56,707 nucleotides of DNA from Reclinomonas americana ATCC 50394 (Eukaryota), in assembly GCA_048213135.1 (NCBI GenBank), contig PS015044.1, forward strand, positions 109,604-166,310, read 5' to 3'. How positions within the stretch are numbered: position 1 is the first letter of the stretch; every line of letters begins with the position of its first letter. Made by a program: the position numbers and the translations under genes. Below, piece after piece: positions 15,250 through 56,707 of this stretch. The notes under the pieces are model-generated. The model was not told the origin of the DNA, did not search any database, and saw only the letters and a list, made by a program, of their open reading frames with translations.

Positions 15250-15333
15250 ACAGTGAAGAGTGATGAAGAGAGAAGGGTTTTAGACAACAACAACAGCAAT
15301 TCATTCACCAACACAATGACGACAACAACTTTA

Positions 15334-18880: not shown

Positions 18881-18970
18881 ACATTGAACCTTGTGTCTGC
18901 ACATGCACACACAAGCGCAGATGCGAAATGTCACAATCGTTGCACTCGTCNNNNNNNNNNNNNNNNNNNN

Positions 18971-19457
18971 AACAGAATTGCCTTGGCACGCGCTTTCCTG
19001 CGACGGTCGCCGATTTTGGTGATGGATGAGCCCACCAGCGCACTGAATTCAGAGAGCATACAGCTGGTGTACAATGCACTGGAGGCGGTGAGTGGGGGTC
19101 GGCAGTCTGGTGAATTATGCTGGAGCCAGTGTGAGATTTTATCTGTTCACCCCCCATCTCTAGAAGATGACGGATTTCTTTTTCTCGTTTAGCCTTACTT
19201 GGTTAATTCGTCATCTCTCTTGTGATTCTATGTGCGGAAAGGGACCCAAATCTTGCGTTGCTAATTCTCTGCTACAGTACTGCAATGACACCGGAGGAAC
19301 GCTGCTCATAATATCACACATTGCCGTACCCGCGCAGTTGTGCAATTACGTGCTGCGTCTGGAAGCTGGGCACATGCAGCGCATGTCGAGAGAGGAGTAT
19401 GCTGCGCTGACGCAGCAGCAAGAGGGGTCAAGCGATATGCCGGCAGAAGAGATGTAG
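18971..19457 (+). CDS. ABC transporter nucleotide-binding domain, C-terminal exons (copy L)
   Basis: RIALARAFLRRSPILVMDEPTSALN (Walker B/D-loop), GTGAG..CAG intron, then LLIISH (H-loop) and stop. Confidence 0.85.
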
Positions 19458-19937
19458 AATTAGCCTCTCGGGAATGGTATGAAAAGGCAAGATGTGAAGG
19501 TCGTCTAATCATAGTGGCAATTAAACTGCAAGCAGCTCTCTCACCAGCGTTGGCCACCAGAGCACACGGACTGCAAAGAGATGACAATGTAACGCAAGTG
19601 TGATCGGCGCACGCATCTGCACGTCATTGCCGCCGTGCCCGCAATACGCCGCGGTGCGTTGCAGAACAAGTTGCACTACGCGATACAACGATCAAGGGTT
19701 GAGGGTGGAGGAGAGACGCTGATCGATATCACACGCACATTCAGAAGGGGTTGACACATGGATGAAATAAGGCCCTGTTACACGCACCGGCGCCGGGCGG
19801 TAGTTTGATCGTTTTCACGTGCCCTCGCTTCCTTCTCTCTTTCACATGTGTATAGCTCCCACGAGTGTGTCAAGATCTCAGTAATTCGATTGCTGCGGAC
19901 TCTCCCTTCTCAGCGCGCTAGTTGTGCTTTGCTACAC

Positions 19938-22868: not shown

Positions 22869-23204
22869 NNNNNNNNNNNNNNNNNNNNNNNNNNNNNNNN
22901 NNNNNNNNNNNNNNNNNNNNNNNNNNNNNNNNNNNNNNNNNNNNNNNNNNNNNNNNNNNNNNNNNNNNNNNNNNNNNNNNNNNNNNNNNNNNNNNNNNNN
23001 NNNNNNNNNNNNNNNNNNNNNNNNNNNNNNNNNNNNNNNNNNNNNNNNNNNNNNNNNNNNNNNNNNNNNNNNNNNNNNNNNNNNNNNNNNNNNNNNNNNN
23101 NNNNNNNNNNNNNNNNNNNNNNNNNNNNNNNNNNNNNNNNNNNNNNNNNNNNNNNNNNNNNNNNNNNNNNNNNNNNNNNNNNNNNNNNNNNNNNNNNNNN
23201 NNNN

Positions 23205-27949: not shown

Positions 27950-28093
27950 TTCACTGTACCGTGCAACAGCGTTGAATCCCTCTCAGTGACCTGGTGGCCA
28001 ACGCTGGTGAGAGAGCTGCTTGCAGTTTAATTGCCACTATGATTAGACGACCTTCACATCTTGCCTGTTCATACCATTCTCGAGAGGCTAATT

Positions 28094-30990
28094 CTACATC
28101 TCTCCTGCCGGCATATCGCTCGACTCCTCTTGCTGCTGCGTCAGCGCAGCATACTCCTCTCTCGACATGCGCTGCACGTGCCCTGCTTCCAGACGCAGCA
28201 CGTAATTGCACAACTGCGCGGGTACGGCAATGTGTGATATTATGAGCAGCGTTCCTCCGGTGTCGTTGCAGTACTGTTGCAGAGAATTAGCAACGCAAGC
28301 TTTGGGTCCCTTTCCGCACATAGAATCACAAGAGAGAAGACGAATTAACCAAGAAAGGCTAAACGAGAAAAAGAAATTCGTCATCTTCTAGAGATGGGGG
28401 GTGAACAGATAAAATCTCACACTGGCTCCAGCATAATTCACCAGACTGCCGACCCCCACTCACCGCCTCCAGTGCATTGTACACCAGCTGTATGCTCTCT
28501 GAATTCAGTGCGCTGGTGGGCTCATCCATCACCAAAATCGGCGACCGTCGCAGGAAAGCACGTGCCAAGGCAATACTGTTNNNNNNNNNNNNNNNNNNNN
28601 GAGAGAGAGAGAGAAAAGAGAACAAAGCAGCATCCACCAGTATGGTCTCGGTTCCTTGGCCATTGGGAGACTTTGCTTCGTCCTTTCGCATTCCCGTCTC
28701 TTTTTCCATACGCTGCCTCTGTCTCCCTCGTTTCTTCGATCCCACTCGACCGCACGCACCAATGTATCGCCAGCGCTCATCGAGGTCCTCTTGCCTCGTA
28801 ACGCTCCGTCACTTCCTTTGTTGTCAACCTCCTTGAGCTTCAAACGTGGAACGCCCTCCTGTAGGCAAAGTGAGCCAGCAAATAGCTCTAATACATATGC
28901 ATGATGCCACATGCAACGACGAACTCCATCGCCAGCCGGCAGCAAGAGGATTTCGTAAATGTCCTCAATGCCACCCACGGTTTGCATGAGATTGGAGAAC
29001 GAATCACTGGCCACACTGATTGAACCAAGCGCAGAAGCGGAAACGGCTGCAGTGCGGCGTCGCATGTGTATGTCAGTCGGACGTGCACACAGACGCACAC
29101 ATGCACAAACACACCCCCACAGACGCCACACACACCACACACACTCTCTTATTCACTCACTCACTCACTCACTCACTCACTCACTCTCTCTCCCACTCAC
29201 TCACTCTCTCTCTCTCTCTCTCTTATTCACTCACTCACTCACTCACNNNNNNNNNNNNNNNNNNNNNNNNNNNNNNNNNNNNNNNNNNNNNNNNNNNNNN
29301 NNNNNNNNNNNNNNNNNNNNNNNNNNNNNNNNNNNNNNNNNNNNNNNNNNNNNNNNNNNNNNNNNNNNNNNNNNNNNNNNNNNNNNNNNNNNNNNNNNNN
29401 NNNNNNNNNNNNNNNNNNNNNNNNNNNNNNNNNNNNNNNNNNNNNNNNNNNNNNNNNNNNNNNNNNNNNNNNNNNNNNNNNNNNNNNNNNNNNNNNNNNN
29501 NNNNNNNNNNNNNNNNNNNNNNNNNNNNNNNNNNNNNNNNNNNNNNNNNNNNNNNNNNNNNNNNNNNNNNNNNNNNNNNNNNNNNNNNNNNNNNNNNNNN
29601 NNNNNNNNNNNNNNNNNNNNNNNNNNNNNNNNNNNNNNNNNNNNNNNNNNNNNNNNNNNNNNNNNNNNNNNNNNNNNNNNNNNNNNNNNNNNNNNNNNNN
29701 NNNNNNNNNNNNNNNNNNNNNNNNNNNNNNNNNNNNNNNNNNNNNNNNNNNNNNNNNNNNNNNNNNNNNNNNNNNNNNNNNNNNNNNNNNNNNNNNNNNN
29801 NNNNNNNNNNNNNNNNNNNNNNNNNNNNNNNNNNNNNNNNNNNNNNNNNNNNNNNNNNNNNNNGAGTCAGGCAGCAGGTTTTCTCAAGTACGCAAGCGGT
29901 GCAGTGATGGTGCGAAACAGTCGCGAAATGAGGTCGCCCTGGTGTGCGGCGCTGAAAAAAGACACTGGCCGTGTGATCAGCACATTGACAAGCTGCGATC
30001 TGGCGCGAAGGAGCACCTGTGCACATGACGCAAATGCTATTTATCAGTCTCGTGCGACAAGAGATCCAACTCGCATACACATTGATTCACAGAAGTCACC
30101 TTGCTGTGCACGAGATGAAACAGCATGAGCGAGCTCTGTGATGAGAACTGCTGAGAGAACATCACAATGGCCCAGTTGATAAGGCCGCGTTTGACACCCT
30201 CCCAGTCGCGTTCTCTGGCAGAGAGACGACAACAGCAAGCACAGCATCGTGGTCAGTCAGCAGCAAACAGTCTCCGCCATGGTTAAGCTGGCGGTGAGGA
30301 CGGAACTCAATGATGGCCGAATTCTGCAACTCCTCCTGCAGCTTGCCCACAATGTTGCCAAGCATCACCGACTCAATCTGACTCGCCGCCGCGCCGACAG
30401 CGGCAAAGAGCACGGCAGTGATGAGAAGCCACTTCTCCGGACCATAGAATGGCAAGATGCGCCACAACATTCGCAGCGTGTGGAACAAGCCTGCTCCACT
30501 TCTACACGGCTGGCAGCCACAGCAGTTGGTCTCGGACGTCTCCGAATGCCTCAACAGCTGGTCCTCGCCTGCGGTGGCTTCCTGTAGCACGCAGCGGACG
30601 TCGTCAACACATCTTGAACATTCAACACTGCGGTGCGCAGCGCGCAGCGCGCGTAACGTTTCCGGCTACAGCATAATTCGAATCCTTGCCCCCGGAATCG
30701 TCACGGCCAGACTGAGGGGCAGGCGACTCGGGTACGAGTTTGTGGTGCACATATCCGTCTCGATCAGTGCGCAGATGAAGCCGAGTCTTGGAGGCCATGG
30801 CGACGGCAATCAACGACTGTGTCAACAAGCCAGTGGGGCTCATGCCGACAACCTCCATGTCATGAGTCGGATATGCGAGCACAGCAGCGAGCGACCCTCG
30901 ACGAGTGCGCTGTCGATCTTGATCAGCAGGATGCGGCTCCTCCTCACTGAAGCGCAGGTACTGCGCTGATGACCCATCGGTGCCCTGCAT
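28094..30990 (-). CDS. ABCB-like ABC transporter (one TMD + one NBD seen), copy R, interrupted by gaps
   Basis: Exons 30990-30658, 30581-30307, 30214-30100, 30016-about 29919; gap; exons within about 29050-28750 (..DSFSNLMQTVGGIEDIYEILLLP..); gap; NBD end 28580-28463 and about 28274-28094. All on the minus strand in the expected domain order. Confidence 0.8.
29150..29246 (+). repeat. (CACT)n/(CT)n microsatellite in ABC intron
   Basis: Directly visible, abuts a gap. Confidence 0.9.
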
Positions 30991-38803: not shown

Positions 38804-41800
38804 CAACCTCGCGTGACGACGCGCGCGCACGTCCGCGCTCGCGACTCGCCTCGCACCACCACCCACCATTGTCGCTGTTGGTGGCAGCGACGGCCGTGTT
38901 GGTGCTCATGCTGGTGGCCATGTCGGACCTGGCCTCGGCGCAGACCACTCTCCTCGGCTCCGGTGGCACCATATCCACCGTGGTTTCCGGCGGCTTCACC
39001 TACACCGTGCACACATTCACCAGCAGCGGCACACTGAACATACCCGCCGGCAGCATCAATCGCGAGCACTTGGTGGTGGCCGGCGGTGGCGGAGGCGGCG
39101 GATGTTCCAGCGGAAACAATTACTATGGTCGCGGTGGCGGTGGAGGAGGAGGTGTGCGCTCCGGTTCCAACACGGTGGCTGCTGGCGCGACATATGCCAT
39201 TACCGTTGGCGCTGGCGGCCTGGGAGCCACCAGCAGCGGAAACGGCAATTCCGGCGGCGGCTCTTCCATCGGCGCCGTGGTGACGTGCAACGGTGGTGGC
39301 GGTGGCGGCGGTGCTGGTGGGAATACCGCTGGTAATACAGGCGGCAGTGGCGGCGGCAATCCTGGAGGCACGAGCGCTGCGGGTGGTCTGGGCACAGCTG
39401 GCGAAGGCAGCAATGGTGGTCAAGGCAACACCTCGTCGCGTACTGCAGGTTCGATTATCACCGAGGATGTGGGGCAAGTAGGGTAGATGTGGTATACAGG
39501 ATCATTCGCCGCGTTATTTTTAAAATCGGTCTTCTTTGTCTCGCTGCCACTGCTGTCCATCTTTTCTTGCGTTCCTGCTTCTCCCTCTCTTTCTCTTATT
39601 TTCCTTTCCTCGCCTTCACTTCCCCTATATTCACCCCTTTGCTCTCCTTCTTGCTCTTCCCCCTTGCTCTTCCCCCTTGCTCTTCCCCCTTGCTCTTNNN
39701 NNNNNNNNNNNNNNNNNNNNNNNNNNNNNNNNNNNNNNNNNNNNNNNNNNNNNNNNNNNNNNNNNNNNNNNNNNNNNNNNNNNNNNNNNNNNNNNNNNNN
39801 NNNNNNNNNNNNNNNNNNNNNNNNNNNNNNNNNNNNNNNNNNNNNNNNNNNNNNNNNNNNNNNNNNNNNNNNNNNNNNNNNNNNNNNNNNNNNNNNNNNN
39901 NNNNNNNNNNNNNNNNNNNNNNNNNNNNNNNNNNNNNNNNNNNNNNNNNNNNNNNNNNNNNNNNNNNNNNNNNNNNNNNNNNNNNNNNNNNNNNNNNNNN
40001 NNNNNNNNNNNNNNNNNNNNNNNNNNNNNNNNNNNNNNNNNNNNNNNNNNNNNNNNNNNNNNNNNNNNNNNNNNNNNNNNNNNNNNNNNNNNNNNNNNNN
40101 NNNNNNNNNNNNNNNNNNNNNNNNNNNNNNNNNNNNNNNNNNNNNNNNNNNNNNNNNNNNNNNNNNNNNNNNNNNNNNNNNNNNNNNNNNNNNNNNNNNN
40201 NNNNNNNNNNNNNNNNNNNNNNNNNNNNNNNNNNNNNNNNNNNNNNNNNNNNNNNNNNNNNNNNNNNNNNNNNNNNNNNNNNNNNNNNNNNNNNNNNNNN
40301 NNNNNNNNNNNNNNNNNNNNNNNNNNNNNNNNNNNNNNNNNNNNNNNNNNNNNNNNNNNNNNNNNNNNNNNNNNNNNNNNNNNNNNNNNNNNNNNNNNNN
40401 NNNNNNNNNNNNNNNNNNNNNNNCTCTTCCCCCTTGCTCTTCCCCCTTGCTCTTCCCCCTTGCTCTTCCCCCCTTGCTCTTCCCCCCTTGCTCTTCCCCC
40501 TTGCTCTTCCCCCCTTGCTCTTCCCCCTTGCTCTTCCCCCCTTGCTCTTCCCCCCTTGCTTTTCCCCCCTTGCTCTTCTCCCCTTGCTCTTCCCCCTTGC
40601 TCTTTCCCCCTTGCTCTTCCCCCCTCATTCCCCCTCCTTCCCCTCTCCTTCCCCCTCTTTCCCCTCTCCCGCTTTGCTCTCTCCCCCATGTTCTCCCCCT
40701 TTCCTCTCCTTTCCTCTTCCCCCTTTCCTCTTCCCCCTTGCTCTTCCCCTTTCCTCTTCCCCCTTTCCTCTTTCCCCCTCGCTCTTCCCCCCTTTGCTCC
40801 CCCTCCCTCTCCTTCTTCCCCCTCTCATCCTCCTTCCCTTTATTCCCTCTCTCAGGCGGCGGCGGTGGCGCTGGCGGCAACGGTGCGAACGGCACTTCGA
40901 CCTCTGGCGGCAACGGTGGTGCTGGCGTGTCATCCTCCATTAGCGGCGTCGCAACATTCTACGGTGGTGGCGGCGGCGGTGGCGGTTTCAACATCTCCGG
41001 TGGCAGTGGTGGTACTGGCGGCAGCGGTGTGGGTGGCAATGCACCCAACGGCAAAGCAAATGGGTCCGACTGCGCTGCAAACACGGGTGGTGGCGGTGGC
41101 GGCGCCGGTGGTGATCCAAGCAGCACACCGGCCTCGTCTGGTGGCGACGGCGGCTCTGGCATCGTCATTGTGCGGTACCGAGCACCGGTGCTGTCCATTC
41201 AGACGCAGCCTTCGACGACATCTGCTTCCGGTTCTGCCTTTGCCACGCAACCCGTCATCCTGCTCGTCGATGCGGCCGGTGTGGCGGTCAGCGGAGTTGT
41301 CGTGACGGCTGCGATTCAGAGCGGTACTGGGTCTGTGAGTGGCACGGCGACGGCGACGACGAATGCGTCTGGGCTTGCCACCTTTACGAATTTGGGCATC
41401 ACTGGCACAGGATCGTTCTCCCTCAACTTTACCGTTCCTGGATCCACTAATTCTGTTACCACTACAACGATCACGGTCTCTACCGCGCCCACGTACGCCA
41501 GCTTCTCGCCTACTTCCATCGGCTCCGTCAGCGGCGTGGCGATGACGGTCACGGGTACCAACTTGCAGAATGCGTCAGGCGACTCGGCAGCCTACATCAT
41601 CTCCAGCACCGCCTGCACGTCGCCAACGGCTGTCGGCTCGACCACATCGGTGGCTCCAGTGGCCCCGTTTACTACGGTGGTGATAACGGTCAACGCATCG
41701 TCCATTCCTCCTGGTACAACCTACAAAGTCTGTGCGCGGTGGTACGTTGTTGTTGGTTTCGCAATTCGGGAAATAGGCTCAATCTCTAGCCCTCTGTATT

Positions 41801-44800
41801 CCTTTCTTCCGCTTTCGTTCTCTCTCTCTCTCTCTCTCACCCTTTCTTCTGCATTCGTATTCAGTCACGACACTTATTCTTTCACCGTCCTTCTTTCAGT
41901 GTTTACCTTTCTCACTCTATCTTTCTTGCCTTCAACTTTTCCCACCTTTTCTCTGATATGCCTCAGCATGTTCCATTTTCTCTTCCTCATTTTCCGTCTC
42001 TCTTGCTTCTCGACTCTCGCGCTTACTCATTGCATTCACCATTTTCTTCTCCCGTCGTTCTAAATTCCCATGTCTCCTATCTGCGTCGATGCTTTCTCCT
42101 TGTTTCTCTTTTTCCTCCTTCCCCACTCACTCCCTGTCTTCCTTCTCAATCCATCTCCCCCTTCTCATTCTCGTTGTCCTCATCCTTTCTCCCTGTTTCT
42201 CTCACACTTGTCTGCCCACTCACTCGTCGTCTTACTTCTTTATCCGTCTCACTCGTACCTGTTCCCGTCTCTTCTCCATATCCCTCTTCTCCTCTACCTG
42301 CGTCTCTCCTTACTTGTTTCTCCCGTTCCTTCTTCCTCACTCCCTCCCCTTCTTCCCCCTCTCGTTATCTGTGTACCACTTCTCCGCTCTGTGCGTTTTA
42401 TCTTTCTCCCTTCCTGCTTCTCTGTTTTCTTGTTCTCTCCTCTCCTCTCCTTCCTCTTCTACAATCCCTCGATCCCTCCTTTCCTTCCTTTCTCCATTCT
42501 TTCCCCTTCTTCTTTCCTCCCTCCTTTTCCTTGTCTCCCCTCTCTCTCTGTTGCTCACCCTTCTCCCTCAACCAGGCCATCGACTGGCTCGTACCAGGCC
42601 GTTGGCGCCGCAAGTCTCACAGTCAGTGCGTGTCATCTCCCCGCGCTCGCTCCATGAAGGTCACTGCCATCTCTTACCCTTTTTAAATTGCTGCGTAGCG
42701 AATACGCCACCCACTGCACCCACTCTGTCGTCGTCGACATACACTCCGCCTTTGGCTTTGAACGGAGTGATTGGCACGCTGTCGTCCACCGATCCGAACA
42801 CTGGCCAGACACTGACGTACACGATCACCGGTGGCACAAACCAAGCCTCCTTCAACATCAGTGGCACGAGTCTGCGATCCAATGTGTCTGGTCTCACCGG
42901 TAACAACTTGCAAGTAATTGTGCAAGTGAGCGATGGAGCAGGCGGAACGGCAAGCACCACGTTCACGATCAGCGAAGGTCTGTGTTGCTAGTTGACCGGG
43001 GAGACCGTCCGATTTCATCGCAGTTCCCTTACTTTTCGTATTCGTTGCAGTCAATGTGAATCCGACTGCACCGACGCTGTCCTCCTCAACGTACACGCCG
43101 CCACTTGCATCGAATGGAGTGATCGGCACTCTCGCCTCAACAGACGCCAACACGGGTCAGACTCTCACGTACACCATCACCGGTGGCACCAACTCGGCCT
43201 CCTTCAACATCAGTGGCACGAGTTTGCGGTCAAATGTGGCTGGTCTCACGGGAAACAATCTGCAAGTGACTGTGCAAGTGAGCGATGGAGCAGGTGGTAC
43301 GGCAAGCACGACTTTCACGATCAACGAGGGTTTGTGTTGCTGGTTGACTGGGAGATGATGTCATCGCGGTTTTCTTACTCTTCGTATCCGTTGCAGCGAA
43401 CGTGATTCCGACTGCGCCGACCCTGTCTTCATCGACATACACTCCGCCACTCGCGCTGAATGGCGTGATTGGCACTCTGGCCTCGACTGACCCCAACACG
43501 GGCCAGACACTGACGTACACAATCACCGGTGGCGCCAACTCGGCCTCATTCAACATCAGTGGCACGAGTTTGCGCTCCAATGTGGCCGGTCTCACGGGAA
43601 ACAATCTGCAAGTGATTGTTCAAGTGAGCGATGGAGCGGGCGGAACGGCGAGCGCTACATTTATAATTAGCGAAGGTCTATGTTGTTGATTGGCTTGAGC
43701 ACGAGTCCGTCGCGGTTGGTCACTCTTCGCTTTCGTTGCAGCGAACGTGAATCCGACTGCGCCGACCTTGTCGTCATCGACATACACGCCTCCACTCGCG
43801 CTGAACGGCGTGATTGGCACACTGGCGTCAACCGATGTGAACACGGGTCAGACCCTGACGTACACGATCACCGGTGGTACCAACTCGGCTTCGTTCAACA
43901 TCAGTGGAACGAGTTTGCGATCGAATGTGGCTGGTCTCACGGGGAACAATCTGCAAGTCATCGTGCAAGTGAGCGATGGAGCAGGTGGCACAGCGAGTGC
44001 CACTTTCACCATCAGCGAAGGTGCGCTGTGCTGCACAAGCTTTCAACAAGAGAGTAGCGTGCGTNNNNNNNNNNNNNNNNNNNNNNNNNNNNNNNNNNNN
44101 NNNNNNNNNNNNNNNNNNNNNNNNNNNNNNNNNNNNNNNNNNNNNNNNNNNNNNNNNNNNNNNNNNNNNNNNNNNNNNNNNNNNNNNNNNNNNNNNNNNN
44201 NNNNNNNNNNNNNNNNNNNNNNNNNNNNNNNNNNNNNNNNNNNNNNNNNNNNNNNNNNNNNNNNNNNNNNNNNNNNNNNNNNNNNNNNNNNNNNNNNNNN
44301 NNNNNNNNNNNNNNNNNNNNNNNNNNNNNNNNNNNNNNNNNNNNNNNNNNNNNNNNNNNNNNNNNNNNNNNNNNNNNNNNNNNNNNNNNNNNNNNNNNNN
44401 NNNNNNNNNNNNNNNNNNNNNNNNNNNNNNNNGGGTCGGCGCAGTCGGATTCACGTTCGCTGACATGGTCACGACGAATGAGTCACATACCAAACATACA
44501 ACATCACTCACAAATTCTCGCGCACACCTTCGTTGATGGTAAAGGTTGTCGTCGCCGTCAGCGTTCCATCACTGACGCGCACAATCACTTGCAACCCGTT
44601 GCCCGTAAGACCGGCCACATTCGATCGCAAGCTCGTGCCGTTGATGTTGAAAGAGGCTTGATTCGTGCCGCCCGTGATCGTGTACGTGAGAGTCTGACCA
44701 GTGTTGGGGTCGGTCGAAGCCAGTGTGCCAATCACGCCATTTACAGCCAAAGGCGGAGTGTATGTCGACGAAGAAAGCGTCGGCGCCGTCGGCGCAACAT

Positions 44801-47800
44801 TGACTGTAAAACAAGCAGGATAAGTCAGGNNNNNNNNNNNNNNNNNNNNNNNNNNNNNNNNNNNNNNNNNNNNNNNNNNNNNNNNNNNNNNNNNNNNNNN
44901 NNNNNNNNNNNNNNNNNNNNNNNNNNNNNNNNNNNNNNNNNNNNNNNNNNNNNNNNNNNNNNNNNNNNNNNNNNNNNNNNNNNNNNNNNNNNNNNNNNNN
45001 NNNNNNNNNNNNNNNNNNNNNNNNNNNNNNNNNNNNNNNNNNNNNNNNNNNNNNNNNNNNNNNNNNNNNNNNNNNNNNNNNNNNNNNNNNNNNNNNNNNN
45101 NNNNNNNNNNNNNNNNNNNNNNNNNNNNNNNNNNNNNNNNNNNNNNNNNNNNNNNNNNNNNNNNNNNNNNNNNNNNNNNNNNNNNNNNNNNNNNNNNNNN
45201 NNNNNNNNNTGTCTTCGTCGACATACACTCCGCCTTTGGCTTTGAATGGCGTGATCGGCACTCTGGCATCGACCGACCCCAACACTGGTCAGACGCTGAC
45301 GTACACCATCACGGGTGGCACAAATCAAGCATCGTTCAACATCAACGGCACGAATTTGCGCTCGAATGTGGCTGGCCTCACGGGTAACAATTTGCAAGTG
45401 ATTGTTCAAGTGAGCGATGGAGCAGGCGGAACGGCAACCACGACATTTACCATCAGCGAAGGTACTTGTTGATTCGTACTCGTGTTGCAGGGTTGTGCGT
45501 ACTCATCGCCCGTCACAGTCAATGTTAACCCCACTGCGCCGACCTTGTCTTCGTCAACGTACACACCTCCGCTCGCGCTGAATGGAGCAATCGGCACTCT
45601 GGCGTCAACAGATGCCAACACTGGCCAGACTCTCACCTATACAATCACGGGCGGTACGAATCAGGCATCGTTCAACATCAGTGGTACCAGCTTGCGCTCC
45701 AATGTGGCCGGCCTCACCGGCAACAATCTGCAAGTCATCGTGCAAGTGAGTGATGGAGCAGGTGGAACTGCAAGCGCCACGTTCACCATTAGCGAAGGTG
45801 GGTGATGTCACGGCTTGCTTGCCGGAGTATTTTGGTTTTGCATGACCAATTCTTTTCCTCGCAGTCAATGTTGCGCCAACGGCACCAACACTCTCACCAT
45901 CCACATACACTCCGCCTTTGGCTCTGAATGGCGTGATCGGCACACTGGCTTCGACGGATCCCAACACTGGTCAGACACTGACGTACACCATCACGGGCGG
46001 CACGAATCAAGCCTCTTTCAACATCAGTGGAACCAGTCTGCGATCAAATGTGGCCGGTCTTACTGGCAACGGGTTGCAAGTGATTGTGCGCGTCAGTGAC
46101 GGAACGCTGACGGCAACGACAACCTTCACCATCAACGAAGGTGTGCGCGAGAATTTGTGAGTGATGTGATGTATTTGCTCTCTGACTCATTCGTCGTGAC
46201 CATATCAGCGAACGTGAATCCGACTGCGCCGACACTGTCTTCATCGACATACACGCCTCCACTTGCGCTGAATGGAGTGATCGGCACGCTTGCGTCGACA
46301 GATGTCAACACGGGTCAGACTCTCACCTATACCATCACCGGTGGCACCAACTCGGCATCGTTCAACATCAGTGGCACCAGTCTGCGATCCAACATTGCTG
46401 GNNNNNNNNNNNNNNNNNNNNNNNNNNNNNNNNNNNNNNNNNNNNNNNNNNNNNNNNNNNNNNNNNNNNNNNNNNNNNNNNNNNNNNNNNNNNNNNNNNN
46501 NNNNNNNNNNNNNNNNNNNNNNNNNNNNNNNNNNNNNNNNNNNNNNNNNNNNNNNNNNNNNNNNNNNNNNNNNNNNNNNNNNNNNNNNNNNNNNNNNNNN
46601 NNNNNNNNNNNNNNNNNNNNNNNNNNNNNNNNNNNNNNNNNNNNNNNNNNNNNNNNNNNNNNNNNNNNNNNNNNNNNNNNNNNNNNNNNNNNNNNNNNNN
46701 NNNNNNNNNNNNNNNNNNNNNNNNNNNNNNNNNNNNNNNNNNNNNNNNNNNNNNNNNNNNNNNNNNNNNNNNNNNNNNNNNNNNNNNNNNNNNNNNNNNN
46801 NNNNNNNNNNNNNNNNNNNNNNNNNNNNNNNNNNNNNNNNNNNNNNNNNNNNNNNNNNNNNNNNNNNNNNCAAACACTGGCCAAACTCTCACCTACACCA
46901 TCACGGGCGGCACGAATCAGGCATCGTTCAACATCAGTGGTACCAGCTTGCGCTCCAATGTGGCCGGTCTCACGGGGAACAATCTGCAAGTCATCGTGCA
47001 AGTGAGCGATGGAGCAGGTGGAACGGCAAGCGCGACGTTCACCATCAGCGAAAGTTCGTTGTGATCCACCAGCTTCAACGACCGAGTAGTATGTGTCGTG
47101 ATTAATTCTGTTTTGTGTTCCAGTCAACGTTGCGCCCACCGCACCAACTCTGTCGCCATCCACATACACTCCGCCTTTGGCTCTGAACGGCGTGGTCGGC
47201 ACTCTGGCGTCGACCGACCCCAACACCGGTCAGACTCTCACCTACACTATCACGGGCGGCACGAATCAAGCCTCCTTCAACATCAACGGCACTAGCTTGC
47301 GATCAAATGTCGCTAGCCTGTCGGGTAACGGGCTGCAAGTTATCGTTCAAGTGAGCGACGGAACGCTGACGGCGACCACAACATTTACCATCAACGAAGG
47401 TGATGTTTGAGCTTGTTTTGACTCGTCGTGTGACGTATTCTCACGATGCTTCTTGCTCTCAAATCAGCCAACGTGAATCCGACGACACCGACGTTATCAC
47501 CGACAACTTACACTCCGCCGCTTTCCATGAACAATGTGATTGGCACTCTGGCGTCAACAGATGTGAACACCGGTCAGACGCTGACGTACACCATCACCGG
47601 TGGTACCAACTCGGCTTCGTTCAACATCAGTGGCACCAGTTTGAGGTCAAACCTTCTCAGCTTCACGGGTAGCAATCTGCAAGTGATTGTGCAAGTGAGC
47701 GATGGGGCTGGTGGAACAGCAAGTGCCACTTTCACGATCAACGAAGGCATGTTGGCTTGATGTTGTTTTCATGTCGTTACCTCCTGATAACGAAGTTGTT

Positions 47801-50800
47801 ACAGTCAATGTTAACCCAACTGCGCCGACCTTGTCGTCGTCGACGTACACGCCTCCGCTCGCGCTGAATGGCGCAATCGGCACTCTGGCATCCACGGACG
47901 CAAACACAGGTCAGACCCTGACGTACACGATCACCGGTGGCACCAACTCGGCATCGTTCAACATCAGTGGCACCAGTCTGCGCTCGAATGTGGCTGGTCT
48001 CACCGGCAACAATCTGCAAGTGATTGTGCAAGTGAGTGATGGAGCAGGTGGAACGGCAAGCACGACGTTCACCATCAGCGAAGGTGCGTTGTGCTCCACA
48101 AGCTTGCAACGACCGCGAAGTATATGTGTCGTGTTAATTTTGTTTTTTTGTTACAGTTAATGTTGCGCCAACGGCACCAACACTCTCACCATCCACATAC
48201 ACTCCGCCTTTGGCTCTGAATGGCGTGATTGGCACACTGACTTCGACCGACCCCAACACTGGTCAGACGCTGACGTACACGATCACGGGCGGCACGAATC
48301 AAGCCTCTTTCAACATCAGTGGAACCAGCTTGCGATCGAATGTGGCCGGCCTCACGGGCAACAATCTGCAAGTGATTGTGCGAGTGAGTGACGGAACGCT
48401 GACGGCAACGACAACCTTCACCATCAACGAAGGTGTGCGCGAGACCCCGTGTGTGATGTCATGTGTTTGCTCTGTGACTCATTCGTCGTGACCATGTCAG
48501 CGAACGTGAATCCGACTGCACCGACCTTGTCTTCATCGACATACACTCCGCCGCTTGCCTCGAATGGAGTTATCGGCACTCTGGCGTCGACTGATGCCAA
48601 CACGGGTCAGACACTGACGTACACCATCACCGGTGGCGCGAATCAAGCGTCGTTCAACATCAGCGGCACCAGTTTGCGATCGAATGTAGCAGGTCTTACG
48701 GGTAACAATCTGCAAGTGATTGTGCAAGTGAGCGATGGAGCAGGAGGAACGGCAAGCACGACGTTCACGATCAATGAGGGTCTGTGTTATCGGTTGTTAT
48801 GGAGAACGAGTTCATCGCGGTTTGCTTACTCTTTGTATCCGTTGCAGCGAACGTGAATCCAACTGCACCGACCCTGTCGTCATCGACATACACTCCACCA
48901 CTTGCCTCGAATGGAGTGATAGGCACTCTGGCGTCGACTGATGTCAACACTGGTCAGACGTTTACGTATACGATCACCGGCGGCACCAACTCGGCTTCGT
49001 TCAACATCAGTGGCACCAGTCTGCGATCCAGCATTGCTGGTCTTACTGGCAACAATCTGCAAGTGATTGTGCAAGTGAGCGATGGGGCTGGTGGAACAGC
49101 AAGTGCCACTTTCACGATCAACGAAGGCATGTTGGCTTGATCTCGTATTCTTGTCGTCGCATCCTCTTGACAATGTCGTTACAGTCAATGTTAACCCTAC
49201 TGCGCCGACCTTGTCGTCGTCGACGTACACGCCTCCGCTCGCGCTGAATGGCGCAATCGGCACTCTGGCATCCACGGACGCAAACACGGGTCAGACCCTG
49301 ACGTACACGATCACCGGTGGCACCAACTCGGCATCGTTCAACATCAGTGGCACCAGTCTGCGCTCGAATGTGGCCGGCCTCACCGGCAACAATCTGCAAG
49401 TCATCGTGCAAGTGAGTGATGGAGCAGGTGGAACTGCAAGCGCCACGTTCACCATTAGCGAAGGTGGGTGATGTCACGGCTTGCTTGCCGGAGTATTTTG
49501 GTTTTGCATGACCAATTCTTTTCCTCGCAGTCAATGTTGCGCCAACGGCACCAACACTCTCACCATCCACATACACTCCGCCTTTGGCGCTGAATGGCGT
49601 GATTGGCACACTGGCTTCGACCGACCCCAACACTGGTCAGACGCTGACGTACACGATCACGGGCGGCACGAATCAAGCCTCTTTCAACATCAGTGGAACC
49701 AGCTTGCGATCGAATGTGGCCGGCCTCACGGGCAACAATCTGCAAGTGATTGTGCGAGTGAGTGACGGAACGCTGACGGCAACGACAACCTTCACCATCA
49801 ACGAAGGTGTGCGCGAGACCCCGTGATTAATGATGTTCTGTGTTTGCTCTGTGACTCATTCGTCGTGACCATGTCAGCGAACGTGAATCCGACTGCACCG
49901 ACCCTGTCTTCGTCAACGTACACGCCGCCTTTGGCTTTGAATGGAGTGATCGGCACTCTGGCGTCGACTGATGTGAACACTGGTCAGACTCTGACGTACA
50001 CGATCACTGGCGGCACGAATCAAGCCTCCTTCAACATCAACGGCACCAGTTTGCGATCCAGCATTGCTGGCCTCACTGGCAACAATCTGCAAGTGATTGT
50101 GCAAGTGAGCGACGGAGCAGGCGGAACGGCAAGTACGACATTCACGATCAATGAGGGTCTGTTAGTGGTTGATTGATTTGGGAACGAGTTTATTGTGGTT
50201 TGCTTACTCTTTGTATCCGTTGCAGCGAACGTGAATCCAACTGCACCGACCTTGTCTTCGTCAACGTACACTCCGCCTTTGGCTTTGAATGGAGTTATCG
50301 GCACTCTGGCGTCGACTGATGTCAACACTGGTCAGACGTTTACGTATACGATCACCGGCGGCACGAATCAGGCTTCATTCAACATCAGCGGCACCAGTCT
50401 GCGATCCAACATTGCTGGCCTCACTGGCAACAATCTGCAAGTGATTGTGCAAGTGAGCGACGGAGCAGGTGGAACTGCGAGCACCACGTTTACGATCAAT
50501 GAGGGTTTGTTGTTGTTGATTGAATTGGGGACAAGTTCATCGCAATTTGCTCACTCTTCGTATTTGTTGCAGCGAACGTGAATCCGACTGCGCCGACCCT
50601 GTCTTCGTCGACATACACTCCGCCGCTTGCCTCGAATGGAGTGATCGGCACTCTGGCATCGACGGATGCCAACACTGGTCAGACACTGACGTACACCATC
50701 ACGGGTGGCACGAATCAAGCGTCATTCAACATCAGCGGCACCAGTTTACGATCCAACATTGCTGGCCTCACTGGCAACAATCTGCAAGTGATTGTGCAAG

Positions 50801-53800
50801 TGAGCGACGGAGTAGGTGGAACAGCAAGCACCACGTTTACGATCAATGAGGGTCTGCGTTATTTGGTGATATGGGGGGAACGAGTTCATCGCGATTTGCT
50901 CACTCTTCGTATTTGTTGCAGCGAACGTGAATCCGACTGCGCCGACCCTGTCTTCGTCGACATACACTCCGCCGCTTGCCTCGAATGGAGTGATCGGCAC
51001 TCTGGCATCGACGGATGCCAACACGGGTCAGACCCTGACGTACACCATCACCGGCGGCACGAATCAGGCATCATTCAACATTAATGGCACCAGTTTACGA
51101 TCCAACATTGCTGGCCTCACTGGCAACAACTTGCAAGTGATTGTGCAAGTGAGCGACGGAGCAGGTGGCACAGCGAGTGCCACTTTCACGATCAGCGAAG
51201 GCATGTTGGCTTTATGTTCTTTCTACTCATCTCGTCGCCTCCTGATAACATAGTTGTTACAGTCAATGTTAACCCTACTGCGCCGACCTTGTCGTCATCG
51301 ACATACACGCCTCCACTCGCGCTGAACGGCGTGATTGGCACACTGGCGTCAACAGATGTGAACACGGGTCAGACCCTGACGTACACCATCACCGGCGGCA
51401 CGAATCAGGCATCATTCAACATTAATGGCACCAGTTTACGATCCAACATTGCTGGCCTCACTGGCAACAACTTGCAAGTGATTGTTCAAGTGAGCGATGG
51501 AGCAGGTGGCACAGCGAGTGCCACTTTNNNNNNNNNNNNNNNNNNNNNNNNNNNNNNNNNNNNNNNNNNNNNNNNNNNNNNNNNNNNNNNNNNNNNNNNN
51601 NNNNNNNNNNNNNNNNNNNNNNNNNNNNNNNNNNNNNNNNNNNNNNNNNNNNNNNNNNNNNNNNNNNNNNNNNNNNNNNNNNNNNNNNNNNNNNNNNNNN
51701 NNNNNNNNNNNNNNNNNNNNNNNNNNNNNNNNNNNNNNNNNNNNNNNNNNNNNNNNNNNNNNNNNNNNNNNNNNNNNNNNNNNNNNNNNNNNNNNNNNNN
51801 NNNNNNNNNNNNNNNNNNNNNNNNNNNNNNNNNNNNNNNNNNNNNNNNNNNNNNNNNNNNNNNNNNNNNNNNNNNNNNNNNNNNNNNNNNNNNNNNNNNN
51901 NNNNNNNNNNNNNNNNNNNNNNNNNNNNNNNNNNNNNNNNNNNNNNNNNNNNNNNNNNNNNNNNNNNNNNNNNNNNNNNNNNNNNNNNNNNNNNNNNNNN
52001 NNNNNNNNNNNNNNNNNNNNNNNNNNNNNNNNNNNNNNNNNNNNNNNNNNNNNNNNNNNNNNNNNNNNNNNNNNNNNNNNNNNNNNNNNNNNNNNNNNNN
52101 NNNNNNNNNNNNNNNNNNNNNNNNNNNNNNNNNNNNNNNNNNNNNNNNNNNNNNNNNNNNNNNNNNNNNNNNNNNNNNNNNNNNNNNNNNNNNNNNNNNN
52201 NNNNNNNNNNNNNNNNNNNNNNNNNNNNNNNNNNNNNNNNNNNNNNNNNNNNNNNNNNNNNNNNNNNNNNNNNNNNNNNNNNNNNNNNNNNNNNNNNNNN
52301 NNNNNNNNNNNNNNNNNNNNNNNNNNNNNNNNTTTCTTCGTCGACATACACTCCGCCGCTTGCCTCGAATGGAGTGATCGGCACCCTGTCATCGACGGAT
52401 GTCAACACTGGTCAGACGCTGACGTACACCATCACGGGTGGCACGAATCAGGCCTCCTTCAACATCAGCGGCACCAGCTTGCGATCCAGCATTGCTGGCC
52501 TCACTGGCAACAATCTGCAAGTGATTGTGCAAGTGAGTGANNNNNNNNNNNNNNNNNNNNNNNNNNNNNNNNNNNNNNNNNNNNNNNNNNNNNNNNNNNN
52601 NNNNNNNNNNNNNNNNNNNNNNNNNNNNNNNNNNNNNNNNNNNNNNNNNNNNNNNNNNNNNNNNNNNNNNNNNNNNNNNNNNNNNNNNNNNNNNNNNNNN
52701 NNNNNNNNNNNNNNNNNNNNNNNNNNNNNNNNNNNNNNNNNNNNNNNNNNNNNNNNNNNNNNNNNNNNNNNNNNNNNNNNNNNNNNNNNNNNNNNNNNNN
52801 NNNNNNNNNNNNNNNNNNNNNNNNNNNNNNNNNNNNNNNNNNNNNNNNNNNNNNNNNNNNNNNNNNNNNNNNNNNNNNNNNNNNNNNNNNNNNNNNNNNN
52901 NNNNNNNNNNNNNNNNNNNNNNNNNNNNNNNNNNNNNNNNNNNNNNNNNNNNNNNNNNNNNNNNNNNNNNNNNNNNNNNNNNNNNNNNNNNNNNNNNNNN
53001 NNNNNNNNNNNNNNNNNNNNNNNNNNNNNNNNNNNNNNNNNNNNNNNNNNNNNNNNNNNNNNNNNNNNNNNNNNNNNNNNNNNNNNNNNNNNNNNNNNNN
53101 NNNNNNNNNNNNNNNNNNNNNNNNNNNNNNNNNNNNNNNNNNNNNNNNNNNCGGAGCAGGTGGAACGGCAAGCACCACGTTCACGATCAATGAGGGTCTG
53201 CGTTATTTGGTGATATGGGGGGAACGAGTTCATCGCGATTTGCTCACTCTCGTATCTGTTGCAGCGAACGTGAATCCGACTGCGCCGACCCTGTCTTCGT
53301 CGACATACACTCCGCCGCTTGCCTCGAATGGTGTGATCGGCACTCTGGCATCGACGGATGTCAACACGGGTCAGACGCTGACGTACACCATCACGGGTGG
53401 CACGAATCAGGCATCATTCAACATCAGCGGCTCCAGCTTGCGATCCAGCATTGCTGGCCTCACTGGCAACAATCTGCAAGTGATTGTGCAAGTGAGCGAC
53501 GGAGCAGGTGGAACAGCAAGCACCACGTTCACGATCAATGAGGGTCTGCGTTATTTGGTGATATGGGGGGAACGAGTTCATCGCGATTTGCTCACTCTTC
53601 GTATCTGTTGCAGCGAACGTGAATCCGACTGCGCCGACCTTGTCGTCATCGACATACACGCCTCCACTCGCGCTGAACGGTGTGATTGGCACACTGGCGT
53701 CAACCGATGTGAACACGGGTCAGACCCTGACGTACACGATCACCGGTGGTACCAACTCGGCTTCGTTCAACATCAGTGGCACCAGTCTGCGCTCGAATGT

Positions 53801-56707
53801 GGCTGGCCTCACGGGGAACAATCTGCAAGTGATTGTTCAAGTGAGCGATGGAGCAGGTGGCACAGCGAGTGCCACATTNNNNNNNNNNNNNNNNNNNNNN
53901 NNNNNNNNNNNNNNNNNNNNNNNNNNNNNNNNNNNNNNNNNNNNNNNNNNNNNNNNNNNNNNNNNNNNNNNNNNNNNNNNNNNNNNNNNNNNNNNNNNNN
54001 NNNNNNNNNNNNNNNNNNNNNNNNNNNNNNNNNNNNNNNNNNNNNNNNNNNNNNNNNNNNNNNNNNNNNNNNNNNNNNNNNNNNNNNNNNNNNNNNNNNN
54101 NNNNNNNNNNNNNNNNNNNNNNNNNNNNNNNNNNNNNNNNNNNNNNNNNNNNNNNNNNNNNNNNNNNNNNNNNNNNNNNNNNNNNNNNNNNNNNNNNNNN
54201 NNNNNNNNNNNNNNNNNNNNNNNNNNNNNNNNNNNNNNNNNNNNNNNNNNNNNNNNNNNNNNNNNNNNNNNNNNNNNNNNNNNNNNNNNNNNNNNNNNNN
54301 NNNNNNNNNNNNNNNNNNNNNNNNNNNNNNNNNNNNNNNNNNNNNNNNNNNNNNNNNNNNNNNNNNNNNNNNNNNNNNNNNNNNNNNNNNNNNNNNNNNN
54401 NNNNNNNNNNNNNNNNNNNNNNNNNNNNNNNNNNNNNNNNNNNNNNNNNNNNNNTGGAGCAGGCGGAACAGCAAGCACGACATTCACGATCAACGAGGGT
54501 GCGTGTACGCTCCGCTTTTTAAGCCGTTCAGTGTGACATATGTATGGTTTATGTCCTCACCATTTCGCAGCTAATGTTGCGCCGAGTGCTCCGACGCTGT
54601 CCTCCTCGACGTACACTCCGCCGCGCGTTCTCAACGGAACAATTGGCACGCTGTCGTCTACGGACCCCAACACTGGCCAGACGCTGACTTACACGATCAC
54701 GGGTGGCACGAATCAAGCATCATTCAACATCAGTGGCACGAGTTTGCAATCGAATGTGTCCGGTCTCACGGGTAACAATCTGCAAGTGATTGTGCAAGTG
54801 AGCGATGGAGCAGGTGGAACAGCAAGTGCCACATTCACCATCAGCGAAGGTGAGCATGCCTTCGAGTACTTCATGCTGTGCTTACCTGTCTCAGTCGCTG
54901 ACGCCGCGCTGCACAGCCAACGTGGTCCCCACTGCTCCGGCTCTGTCATCGACCACGTACACCCCGCCTCTCGCTTTGAATGGTGTGATTGGCACATTGT
55001 CGTCGACAGACCCGAACACGGGTCAGACACTCGTATTTTCCATTGTTGGTGGCACCAACTCTGCCTCGTTCAACATCAGCGGCACCAACCTGCGATCCAA
55101 TGTGGCAGGCCTCACTGGCAACAGCCTGCAAGTGATTGTGCAAGTGAGCGACGGTGCCGGTGGTGTGAATACGACAACGTTCAACATGTCTGAAGGTAAG
55201 GCGATGCATTTGTTGTTCACTCTTACTCCAGTGCATCACACGCGTTTATGAGCGCAGTCAATGTGGTACCCACTGCGCCGACACTCTCCACCAACTTGTA
55301 CGTGGCGCCGCTCGCGCTGAACGGAGTAATTGGCACTCTGGCGTCAACCGATGTCAACACCGGTCAGACACTGACCTTCTCCATCACCGGCGGCACCAAC
55401 TCGGCATCATTCAACATCAGCGGCACGAGTCTACGCTCAAGTGTGTCTGGCCTCACCGGTAACGGACTGCAAGTGATTGTCACTGTCAGCGACGGTGCTG
55501 GCGGAACTCGCTCGTCCACATTCAACATCTCGGAAGGTTCGTGTGACGCAGATGACTTATTAAGAGATCGCCCTTGGTGCGCTGACTCTCCTCCTGCAGC
55601 CAACATGAGCCCTACGGTCCCCGTCTTGTCGACAACGCTGTACACGCCGCCGCGTGCTCTGAATGGCGTGATTGGCACTCTCTCCGCAACACCTGCCGTG
55701 GCTGGTGACACGCTCACATTCTCGATCACTGGTGGCGCCAACCAAGCATCCTTCAACATTAGTGGCACGGACCTGCGTTCCAACGTCGCGGGCCTTGTCG
55801 GGAACAACTTGCATGTTGAGATCACTGTCACGGCCAGCTCCGGTGGCACGAACTCCTTCGTATTCGACATTGATGAGCGTTGCGTCTGTTGATCCTGTTC
55901 CTTATTTGTTTATCTGTGTTGTTGTTCACCGCCGTGGCTGCAGTCAACGTGATACCAACTGCACCAACGCTGTCGTCGTCGACATATGTGCCGCCACTGG
56001 CACTTGGCGGCGTCATTGGCATGCTGTCGTCGACAGACCCAAACTCGGGGCAGTCGTTGACTTACTATGTCTCTGGCGGCACCAATCAGTCTCTGTTTTC
56101 AGTCAGTGGTGGGAACAGCCTCGTGACAGCAGTGTCGAATCTGACGGGCAACAGCCTGCAAGTGATCGTCACAGTCGACGATGGAGCAGGCGGCACCAAC
56201 ACTGCGACATTCCTCATCAACGAAGGTTGGAGCGACGCGCACTGCGCTCGTCTCTCTTGTCCTCACTGACCCATCGTTCTTGTGTCTTACGTAGCTAATG
56301 TGAACCCGACGGCGCCCACTCTGTCAAGCAGCACTTACACCCCACCACTCGCCACAAATGGCGTCATTGGCACTCTCGCCTCGACAGACGCCAACACGGG
56401 CCAGACGCTGACGTACACCATCACGGGCGGCACGAACTCGGGATCGTTCAACATCAGCGGCAGCAGCTTGCGGTCGAATGTGGCAGGACTCACCGGCAAC
56501 AGCCTGCAAGTGATTGTGCAAGTGAGCGATGGAGCAGGTGGCACCAACACGTCCACGTTCACCATCAGCGAAGGTCCGTGTGGTGGCTTGTTCCTTTGCT
56601 TCTTCCCTTTTGCACCCGCTCATTCGCACACTCTGTTGCCTTTGTGACAGCCAACGTTGTGCCGACGCCGCCGACTCTATCCACCTCGACGTACACTCCA
56701 CCACTGG
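38804..56707 (+). CDS. Giant surface/adhesin-like protein, copy R, with roughly 34 cadherin-like repeats visible; 3' end off the window, start uncertain
   Basis: Exons 38804-39448, 40856-41741, 42576-42625, then repeat exons starting at 42699, 43051, 43397, 43742, (44803 and 44459 on a flipped contig), 45519, 45865, 46209, 47124, 47468, 47805, 48157, 48501, 48848, 49185, 49531, 49878, 50226, 50573, 50922, 51263, 53265, 53614, 54571, 54917, 55258, 55600, 55944, 56295, 56651, plus gap-truncated units. No in-exon stop seen. Confidence 0.86.
39650..40625 (+). repeat. Intronic 12-13 bp minisatellite (CCCC[C]TTGCTCTT)n spanning a gap
   Basis: Visible on both sides of the gap; related GGGGAAGAGCAA/GGGGAGAT units at 6412-6570 in the mirror arm. 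Confidence 0.88.
42699..56707 (+). repeat. Exon-intron tandem array of cadherin-like domains (unit about 340-350 bp)
   Basis: 279/276-nt (once 282-nt) exons separated by 57-77 nt introns belonging to a few recurring sequence families. Confidence 0.95.

Follow-up and report, generated by a model that had tools for sequence, protein, structure and literature searches.

A stretch of 56,707 nt from Reclinomonas americana ATCC 50394 (contig PS015044.1, positions 109,604 to 166,310 of the forward strand; hereafter the window, in whose numbering all positions are given) contains an array of cadherin-like domain exons that extends from position 42699 to its end. We consider this locus to be the stalk-encoding part of a gene for a giant secreted or surface protein in an intron-bearing microbial eukaryote, a reading to which we assign a probability of about 0.72. 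The predicted protein would consist, in this order, of a signal-like N-terminus, a glycine-rich domain of the phage tail fibre type, a Ser/Thr-rich segment rich in predicted strands and at least 34 tandem beta-sandwich domains of the cadherin superfamily, which comprise 91-93 residues each and run off the window. The amplified unit presumably was one exon together with its intron (approximately 346 bp); amplification of such a unit would account for the presence of one domain per exon between phase-1 introns and would make all introns copies of one original.

Exon-intron architecture of the array

A tblastn search of the window with the first repeat resulted in 41 high-scoring segment pairs, 32 of them on the forward strand at 42701-56706, one on the reverse strand at 44565-44801 and eight on the reverse strand at 1-3171. 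On the forward strand 25 complete exons were identified between 42699 and the window end (20 of 279 nt, four of 276 nt and one of 282 nt), and nine additional exon pieces are cut by runs of N (N gaps) or by the window end, giving a total of 34 pieces. A preliminary description of this DNA, made from the sequence without database searches, had proposed an array of 34 or more cadherin-like units with one domain per exon, in which exons of 279, 276 or 282 nt are flanked on both sides by phase-1 introns. Both proposals agree with the present analysis, the latter for all 25 complete exons, whereas the visible coding sequence of the array amounts to 2,825 amino acids (aa) instead of the more than 3000 aa stated there. 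The gene extends past the window end.

The exon borders carry regular splice signals. AG precedes all of the 29 exon starts examined, and the 25 donors comprise 22 GT and three GC dinucleotides, the latter at 47747, 49127 and 51201. Phase 1 was found at every junction, the codon being split after its first base. Intron length, measured in 24 cases, ranges from 58 to 77 nt (median of 68 nt among the first 22) and is not a multiple of three in 20 of them. When 22 introns were tested for read-through, a single one (55537-55599, 63 nt) proved to be open and in frame; since the other 21 cannot be read through, splicing is needed for a continuous reading frame. Within the 24 introns, G occupies position +5 of the donor in 21 cases and C position -3 of the acceptor in 23, and 19 contain a branch-like motif CTNAY at a distance of 8-45 nt from their 3' end, whereas 500 shuffles gave 5.3 such introns on average and 12 at most. 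As many introns are copies of one another, the counts cannot be treated as independent.

Variation among the exons follows the codon structure. In the 16 most similar 279-nt exons the variable columns at codon positions 1, 2 and 3 number 25, 19 and 80 of 92, respectively, and this bias towards the third position indicates that the reading frame of the array is real. Neither stop codons nor frameshifts were detected in the 25 complete exons. Each of these exons encloses a whole domain between two phase-1 introns, which is the arrangement of a class 1-1 module, and within the window the cadherin module is restricted to two paralogous arrays, the second of which lies at the left end.

The features of the right gene copy are as follows (a slash marks the splice site; the letter given for some units is the intron type explained below):

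38890-39449, + strand: exon A, encoding the signal-like hydrophobic N-terminus and the beginning of the glycine-rich domain (direct reading, Gly_rich_2, PHROG)
39450-40855, + strand: putative intron, phase 1, 1,406 nt, CT-rich, holding the N gap 39698-40423
40856-41741, + strand: exon B, encoding the rest of the glycine-rich domain followed by a Ser/Thr-rich, strand-rich sequence (Gly_rich_2, phrog_2295)
41742-42575, + strand: putative intron, phase 2, 834 nt, CT-rich, donor TG/GTACGT, acceptor AACCAG/G
42576-42625, + strand: putative mini-exon, 50 nt, converting phase 2 to phase 1 and linking head and array (direct reading)
42626-42698, + strand: intron, phase 1, 73 nt, donor GTGCGT, CTTAC branch-like motif, acceptor TAG
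42699-42977, + strand: cadherin exon 1, 279 nt
43051-43329, + strand: cadherin exon, 279 nt, 'a'-type, without counterpart in the left copy
43397-43675, + strand: cadherin exon, 279 nt, 'a'-type, without counterpart in the left copy
43742-44020, + strand: cadherin exon, 279 nt; the intron after it enters an N gap
44528-44803, - strand: 276-nt variant exon on the 397-nt contig 44433-44829 between two N gaps
45210-45461, + strand: partial cadherin exon, 5' end in gap
45519-45797, + strand: cadherin exon, 279 nt
45865-46140, + strand: cadherin exon, 276-nt variant, one codon shorter
46209-46401, + strand: partial cadherin exon, 3' end in gap
46871-47053, + strand: partial cadherin exon, 5' end in gap, donor A/GT
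47124-47399, + strand: cadherin exon, 276-nt variant
47468-47746, + strand: cadherin exon, 279 nt, N-terminal part more diverged, GC donor
47805-48083, + strand: cadherin exon, 279 nt
48157-48432, + strand: cadherin exon, 276-nt variant
48501-48779, + strand: cadherin exon, 279 nt
48848-49126, + strand: cadherin exon, 279 nt, GC donor
49185-49463, + strand: cadherin exon, 279 nt
49531-49806, + strand: cadherin exon, 276-nt variant
49878-50156, + strand: cadherin exon, 279 nt
50226-50504, + strand: cadherin exon, 279 nt
50573-50851, + strand: cadherin exon, 279 nt
50922-51200, + strand: cadherin exon, 279 nt, GC donor
51263-51527, + strand: partial cadherin exon, 3' end in gap
52333-52540, + strand: partial cadherin exon, both ends in gaps
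53152-53195, + strand: partial cadherin exon, last 44 nt only
53265-53543, + strand: cadherin exon, 279 nt
53614-53878, + strand: partial cadherin exon, 3' end in gap
54455-54498, + strand: partial cadherin exon, last 44 nt only
54571-54849, + strand: cadherin exon, 279 nt
54917-55195, + strand: cadherin exon, 279 nt, diverged, protein 82% identical to that of exon 1
55258-55536, + strand: cadherin exon, 279 nt, diverged, followed by the sole in-frame open intron (63 nt)
55600-55878, + strand: cadherin exon, 279 nt, most diverged, protein 64% identical to that of exon 1
55944-56225, + strand: cadherin exon, 282 nt, one extra codon
56295-56573, + strand: cadherin exon, 279 nt
56651-56707, + strand: beginning of the next cadherin exon, truncated by the window end

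Fold, family and relatives of the repeat

The 24 aligned repeats share a mean identity of 89% per column. A model of one repeat that was built from the repeat alignment with AlphaFold2 (AF2) reached a predicted local distance difference test (pLDDT) score of 88.7 and a predicted template modelling (pTM) score of 0.79, two of the five models scoring above 80. All matches listed by Foldseek against the PDB were extracellular cadherin (EC) domains of the cadherin family (probability 1.00, TMq 0.47-0.73); the best E-value was 1.8e-3, and no match was obtained at E ≤ 1e-3. Based on this model each exon is predicted to encode one beta-sandwich of the cadherin fold, as the preliminary description had supposed. 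A search of the PDB with the repeat profile points in the same direction, with protocadherin-15 at E 1.9e-4 and cadherins making up six of the seven sequences at E ≤ 1.

The Pfam cadherin model gave a different picture: when single repeats were compared with known families by hidden Markov model and by structure, as had been suggested, the cadherin-type beta-sandwich was supported by the predicted structure and not by PF00028. PF00028 was absent at E ≤ 1 from all four single repeats searched and at E ≤ 1e-3 from a 222-aa read-through piece with two repeats. With Big_9 (PF17963, cut-off 23.6 bits) three of the four single repeats scored 24.9, 20.0 and 19.9 bits and the fourth gave no match, while the two-repeat piece reached 30.2 bits. 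The bacterial protein P0241 (4,098 aa) contains 27 PF00028 stretches (E 6.2e-229) and matches Big_9 as well, so that repeats of this type fall within the reach of both models.

P0241 was the top hit of an exhaustive search of 1.84 billion representative proteins with the repeat. It was found with 34 matched stretches and 786 bits, i.e. approximately 23 bits per repeat, and shares 36-41% identity with the repeat over 95-98 columns according to BLASTP (best E 7e-13), which establishes sequence homology of the array repeat with genuine PF00028 repeats. The search returned 6,780 proteins at E ≤ 1e-3, of which the best 150 by total score were considered, so that short fragments with one near-identical repeat could be missed. 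Three of the ten top matches have informative names, namely a 'gliding motility-associated-like protein' and cadherin-domain proteins from metagenome-assembled genomes (MAGs) of Chitinophagales and Silvanigrellaceae. A further repeat search resulted in 196 longer proteins at E ≤ 1e-3; among the 120 of them that were listed, none stems from the eukaryote source seen in other searches, and wherever an organism is named it is a bacterium (Rhodopirellula, Stieleria, Bacteroidota and others). Scans that relied on few exact peptide patterns yielded one locus among metagenomes with the repeat (49% identity), one locus among genome contigs with the repeat alignment (43% identity) and no locus among genome contigs with the glycine-rich head. 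Neither the head nor the repeat matched a family in NCBIfam, and ESM Atlas provided no usable match. Taken together, the bacterial relatives of the repeat are 37-48% identical to it, and in sequence it is much closer to bacterial than to animal repeats. The designation of the repeat as 'bacterial-style' is therefore well founded, its best relatives being bacterial cadherin-domain adhesins.

Cadherins bind calcium in their linkers through the motifs XEX, DXD, DRE-like, XDX and DXNDN-like. In P0241 we take the corresponding acidic positions, i.e. the E of 'AEN', both D of 'DQD', the D and E of 'LDFE' and the E of 'NVNEAP', to be calcium ligands. In the repeats of the window, when aligned with P0241, those in 'AEN', 'LDFE' and 'NVNEAP' and, within 'DQD', the second D are replaced or deleted; what is retained are the Asn residues of the linker and the Asp in each of 'STD' and 'SDG'. 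The loss of these acidic positions explains why PF00028 fails, and the repeat is a bacterial-type cadherin-superfamily domain with a degenerate calcium site. The repeats are furthermore devoid of Lys, Cys and Trp, Thr, Ser, Gly and Asn together account for 53% of their residues, and an N-I-S sequon is conserved in 21 of 25 repeats.

The head of the gene

The sequence upstream of the array encodes a putative N-terminal head. Its glycine-rich domain was recognised by the Pfam family Gly_rich_2 (PF21722) in two parts, with profile positions 3-149 in exon A (E 1.9e-8, 35.1 bits, cut-off 24.3) and 134-226 in exon B (E 7.6e-6, 26.5 bits), the latter accompanied by a weak match to DUF7382. In the PHROG database exon A matched the tail-fibre families phrog_2295 (8.3e-22) and phrog_863 (2.9e-14), and exon B matched phrog_2295 (E 4.9e-18); families annotated as tail fibre that match the head also include phrog_6202 and phrog_454. 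The Ser/Thr-rich, strand-rich part of exon B is probably immunoglobulin (Ig)/IPT-like; its AF2 model (pLDDT 36.5) was too poor for use.

The donor G/GTTCGA and the acceptor CTCAG/GC at the junction of exons A and B keep the frame of Gly_rich_2. Since the profile is divided between the two exons and the junctions are in frame, head and array are predicted to belong to one gene in which exon A, exon B, the mini-exon and the array are joined in frame. This in-frame connection also supports the reading as a giant secreted protein; the preliminary description had envisaged a giant adhesin.

The inverted duplication and the reliability of the assembly

With a G+C content of approximately 50% and long GA/CT microsatellites, the window has the appearance of a draft scaffold from a eukaryote with introns. 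It is organised as a large inverted duplication in which 3757-19560 pairs with 42420-27991 at a DNA identity of 86-97%. Identity is distributed unevenly along the arms, with 97% near 19000, 93% at 13814-16733 and 86-92% farther out, and the unique coding sequence of the arms shows a synonymous divergence (dS) of 0.23-0.27. The paralogues in the centre of the duplication (approximately 19560-27991) share only 60% protein identity.

It might be argued that the structure is largely a product of the assembly, in which case the two copies would be haplotypes fused in head-to-head orientation, and neither the count of the units nor their order could be relied upon. The window indeed comprises 16 N runs, six of which, with 3,209 N bases, interrupt the right array, and the arms are similar enough to invite such a suspicion. 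Moreover, the 397-nt contig 44433-44829 is inverted relative to the array, most likely due to a scaffolding error; it is approximately 90% identical to d-type units of both arrays and, if flipped, matches unit 3 of the left copy. However, the divergence of the central paralogues and the dS of the arms, both far above usual allelic divergence, count against a mis-join of haplotypes. In addition, the exon-intron architecture is visible inside the N-free contigs 40424-44064 and 46871-51527 and hence independent of scaffolding. Taking this into account, it seems unlikely that the assembly created the main features of the locus.

Several other genes were noticed in the window. Two copies of a P-type cation ATPase gene, at 8656-15276 (+) and 37589-32306 (-), lie within the duplication arms. 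Their introns of approximately 1.5-2 kb are rich in GA/CT microsatellites and far longer than the 58-77 nt of the array introns. The best relative of an ATPase exon is 54% identical (ENA protein), and the best named ones are from Tetraselmis (48%) and Chromera velia (47%). A gene at 23206-26568 (+) was assigned to Pfam Beta_helix (E 2.3e-14) with an additional weak match to the repeat of Chlamydia polymorphic membrane proteins (PMP); its right-handed beta-helix region is followed by a Cys-rich and then a hydrophobic segment. It looks like another surface-protein gene and has a diverged inverted partner at approximately 19900-22868 (-). The open reading frame pieces at 17462-19200 and 28359-30665, one per arm, carry a signature of ATP-binding cassette (ABC) transporter-like ATP-binding proteins, which was assigned by eye. 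Scans of the window with Rfam and for tRNA genes gave no matches.

Comparison of the two gene copies

The left copy is located at the other end of the window on the reverse strand:

1-3173, - strand: left array of eight units, AG acceptors in 8 of 8, GT donors in 7 of 7 measurable, phase 1
3174-7364, - strand: 5' part of the left copy, comprising an ATG (7364-7362), exon A, an intron with a gap, exon B (5328-4443) and the mini-exon region

One intron of the left array (1860-1227, - strand) measures 634 nt compared with the usual length of approximately 68 nt and is filled with CT microsatellites.

The mini-exon and the adjacent intron of the right copy are 93% identical to 3295-3174 of the left copy. 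Between the copies, the ratio of nonsynonymous (dN) to synonymous divergence is 0.15-0.21 for the head and 0.02-0.11 for cadherin exons 1-4, which indicates that both copies have been under purifying selection. Introns were assigned to types a-g by eye and by pairwise identity, automatic clustering being too permissive (shuffled introns reached an identity of 0.67). According to this assignment left intron 2 corresponds to the e-type intron after 47805 (89% identity) and left intron 3 to the d-type (91%), left introns 6 and 7 are of e-type and d-type, and the order e, d, g, e, d of the left copy recurs in the right copy. Two 'a'-type units of the right copy (43051-43675) have no counterpart on the left; otherwise the order of types matches. 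Thus, the copies differ by one in-frame change of two whole units since their divergence.

Cadherin exon 1 (42701-42976 versus 3171-2896) shows a dS of 0.64 at a dN of 0.015, compared with a dS of 0.23-0.27 in the adjacent head and 93% identity in the neighbouring mini-exon and intron. This excess could be due to gene conversion from other repeats.

A second explanation for the pair of copies is that the right one is a decaying duplicate and the left one alone is functional. It draws on the putative start codon: where the left copy has an ATG (7364-7362) that opens a good hydrophobic leader, the right copy reads ACG (38890-38892), which could be either a real loss of the start codon or an error in the draft sequence. 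On the other hand, the next in-frame ATG of the right copy follows at 38908, only 18 nt downstream, and a single base of a draft may be wrong. The absence of stops and frameshifts from the complete exons and the ratio of 0.02-0.21 between the copies are furthermore difficult to reconcile with decay, and we regard this explanation as improbable.

History and constraint of the array

The periods detected by TRF (336-349 nt) correspond to one exon plus one intron. Across 120 exon pairs the median dS was 0.91, the median dN 0.046 and the median dN/dS 0.058; exon identity is 75-85% at the DNA level and approximately 90% at the protein level. These values indicate that most duplications are old and that strong purifying selection has kept the proteins of all copies nearly alike; the visible array is not rapidly churning. 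The introns form several types that are no longer alignable with one another.

Shifting the array against itself by 1,382 nt (four units) gave 80% identity over 3.3 kb compared with 76% for a shift by one unit, which indicates that some growth proceeded in blocks of four exons. This higher-order four-unit repeat is weak and the growth not very recent: the most similar long block has an identity of 89%, and a strict blastn search for recent block duplications (≥88% identity, ≥450 nt) revealed a single pair, 50461-51183 versus 53152-53875. The variation in length by gain and loss of units that had been proposed earlier is thus partly supported, by the two extra units of the right copy and by the weak four-unit repeat, while the great age of most repeats speaks against frequent change.

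Alternative splicing had been suggested as another source of variation, in the manner of Dscam or titin; subsets of exons would then give rise to stalks of different length or composition. The symmetric 1-1 exons would allow any skip in frame, and three introns carry weaker GC donors. Short introns favour intron definition, in which retention is the usual variant and exon skipping is uncommon. Introns of just 58-77 nt are therefore a poor fit for a cassette system, the more so as retention would break the frame in 21 of 22 cases, and with repeats approximately 90% identical at the protein level the choice of exons would change little except length. Such a system has low probability in our view. 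We rather expect the introns to be spliced constitutively and the length of the stalk to have been tuned over evolutionary time by unequal recombination, given that gain or loss of a complete unit leaves the reading frame intact.

That the array is bacterial DNA, present as contamination or as a very recent insertion, with degenerate spacers in place of introns, can be dismissed: the nearest relatives of the repeat and of the glycine-rich head are bacterial or from phages, but the bacterial relatives of the repeat are merely 37-48% identical, the spacers interrupt the frame and possess regular splice signals, and the array is contiguous with introns rich in CT microsatellites and adjoins the intron-bearing P-type ATPase gene, whose relatives in Tetraselmis and Chromera are 47-48% identical.

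Proposed role and origin

As the stalk-encoding part of a gene for a giant secreted or surface protein, the locus would direct its product into the secretory route by means of the signal peptide, where it may form a long fibre. The stalk would then hold the glycine-rich head far from the cell in the manner of an adhesin, and an anchor or further domains may follow beyond the window. The role as an adhesin is suggested by the architecture and by the bacterial relatives, and the repeat type presumably came from bacteria.

Several points weigh against this interpretation. The gene model and its splicing were derived from genomic sequence alone, visual inspection served to assign the 5' junctions and the signal peptide, and the C-terminus falls outside the window. 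The six N gaps and the misoriented contig render copy number and order uncertain, and the most similar units are probably hidden in the gaps, which would bias the view towards an old and stable array. PF00028 is not recognised in single repeats, and with most calcium-ligand positions altered a calcium-stiffened stalk does not seem assured. A start at 38908 would leave a short hydrophobic leader, so that the right copy may be impaired or may start elsewhere.

A more specific scenario, which we put forward tentatively and consider less probable than its contrary, is that a bacterial or phage adhesin with a head of the tail-fibre type and a cadherin stalk entered the protist genome by horizontal transfer and gained a single intron in one inter-domain linker, and that amplification of the exon together with this intron then multiplied the intron more than 30-fold. 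If so, tandem duplication would have caused introns to proliferate in a direct way that can be dated, and a fibre of prokaryotic make would have been turned into a eukaryotic gene of phase-1 cassettes. The near-saturated dS at approximately 90% protein identity would then reflect long-term selection that keeps the stalk modules alike, and selection might also keep the DNA of the units dissimilar enough to limit recombination. More generally, a bacterial origin of the repeat would show how a prokaryotic fibre gene turns into an intron-rich eukaryotic gene and how dozens of copies can arise from one intron.

As the window contains both diverged copies, it offers a built-in comparison. A dN/dS of approximately 0.06 at a dS of approximately 0.9 raises the question of what function needs more than 30 almost identical domains.

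Comparison with known systems

In titin and Dscam many similar tandem domain exons with a preserved frame are found in animal genes with long introns, and variability arises by regulated splicing. The array resembles these genes in its series of domain exons and differs from them by introns of 58-77 nt.

In its repeats the array gene is closest to the giant cadherin adhesins of bacteria, for example P0241, MEZ4885108.1 from a Chitinophagales MAG, a protein from a Silvanigrellaceae MAG and proteins of Rhodopirellula sallentina and Stieleria sp. They share the repeat family, the dozens of tandem repeats of approximately 92-100 residues and the very large size of an extracellular protein. The bacterial adhesins, however, are single predicted proteins of up to 4,098 aa that keep the acidic calcium-ligand positions, whereas the array gene has each repeat in a separate exon, most ligand positions replaced and a Gly_rich_2 head. 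Consequently, it lacks the uninterrupted gene that characterises the bacterial secreted cadherin adhesins (type IX/RTX), an intron being present at every repeat. One bacterial relative, P0244, ends in a type IX secretion domain, while the C-terminus of the array gene lies beyond the window.

According to an excerpt of PMC7493085, the stalks of bacterial repeats-in-toxin (RTX) adhesins consist of tandem beta-sandwich repeats, with Ca2+ bound in every linker, and act as an extender that holds the binding region off the cell surface. The array is similar in its tandem beta-sandwich repeats and their proposed use as an extender. It differs from the stalks portrayed in that excerpt in that most of the corresponding Ca2+-ligand positions are changed, and for this reason calcium stiffening of its stalk appears doubtful from the sequence.

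The sponge aggregation factor genes of Amphimedon (AqAFs) offer a parallel at the level of gene structure. In the part of PMC5400394 used here, 154 of their 155 introns are described as phase 1, and frame-safe shuffling as well as possible alternative splicing are discussed. Like the array gene they encode large extracellular repeat proteins in symmetric phase-1 exons. As far as that part of the article goes, they differ as animal genes with Calx-beta and Wreath domains, most of which extend over three exons, and with introns averaging 172 nt (PMC5400394), whereas the array has one cadherin-type domain per exon, introns of approximately 68 nt and a genome of unicellular type.

The EC repeats of metazoan cadherins such as protocadherin-15, cadherin-23 and CELSR1 resemble the array repeat in fold and by weak profile similarity (best E 1.9e-4). 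Their gene structure is different: exon junctions in the cadherin linkers of animal genes are significantly rarer than expected, as stated in the section of PMC1553488 available to us, while the array gene has an intron in every linker.

Exon shuffling is classically associated with class 1-1 modules (Patthy), i.e. domains located between introns of the same phase. A limited word search of the literature, with supplements outside its scope, found no description of an array with one cadherin domain per exon in a protist. Symmetric phase-1 domain exons are known in principle; in the extracellular proteins of animals they classically mark exon shuffling, to which animal cadherins are, in the same section of PMC1553488, a noted exception. 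That a protist employs them for cadherin repeats of bacterial type appears to be new: in the array the phase-1 rule holds without exception for cadherin-type domains, the nearest relatives of these domains are bacterial, and the genome is of unicellular type.

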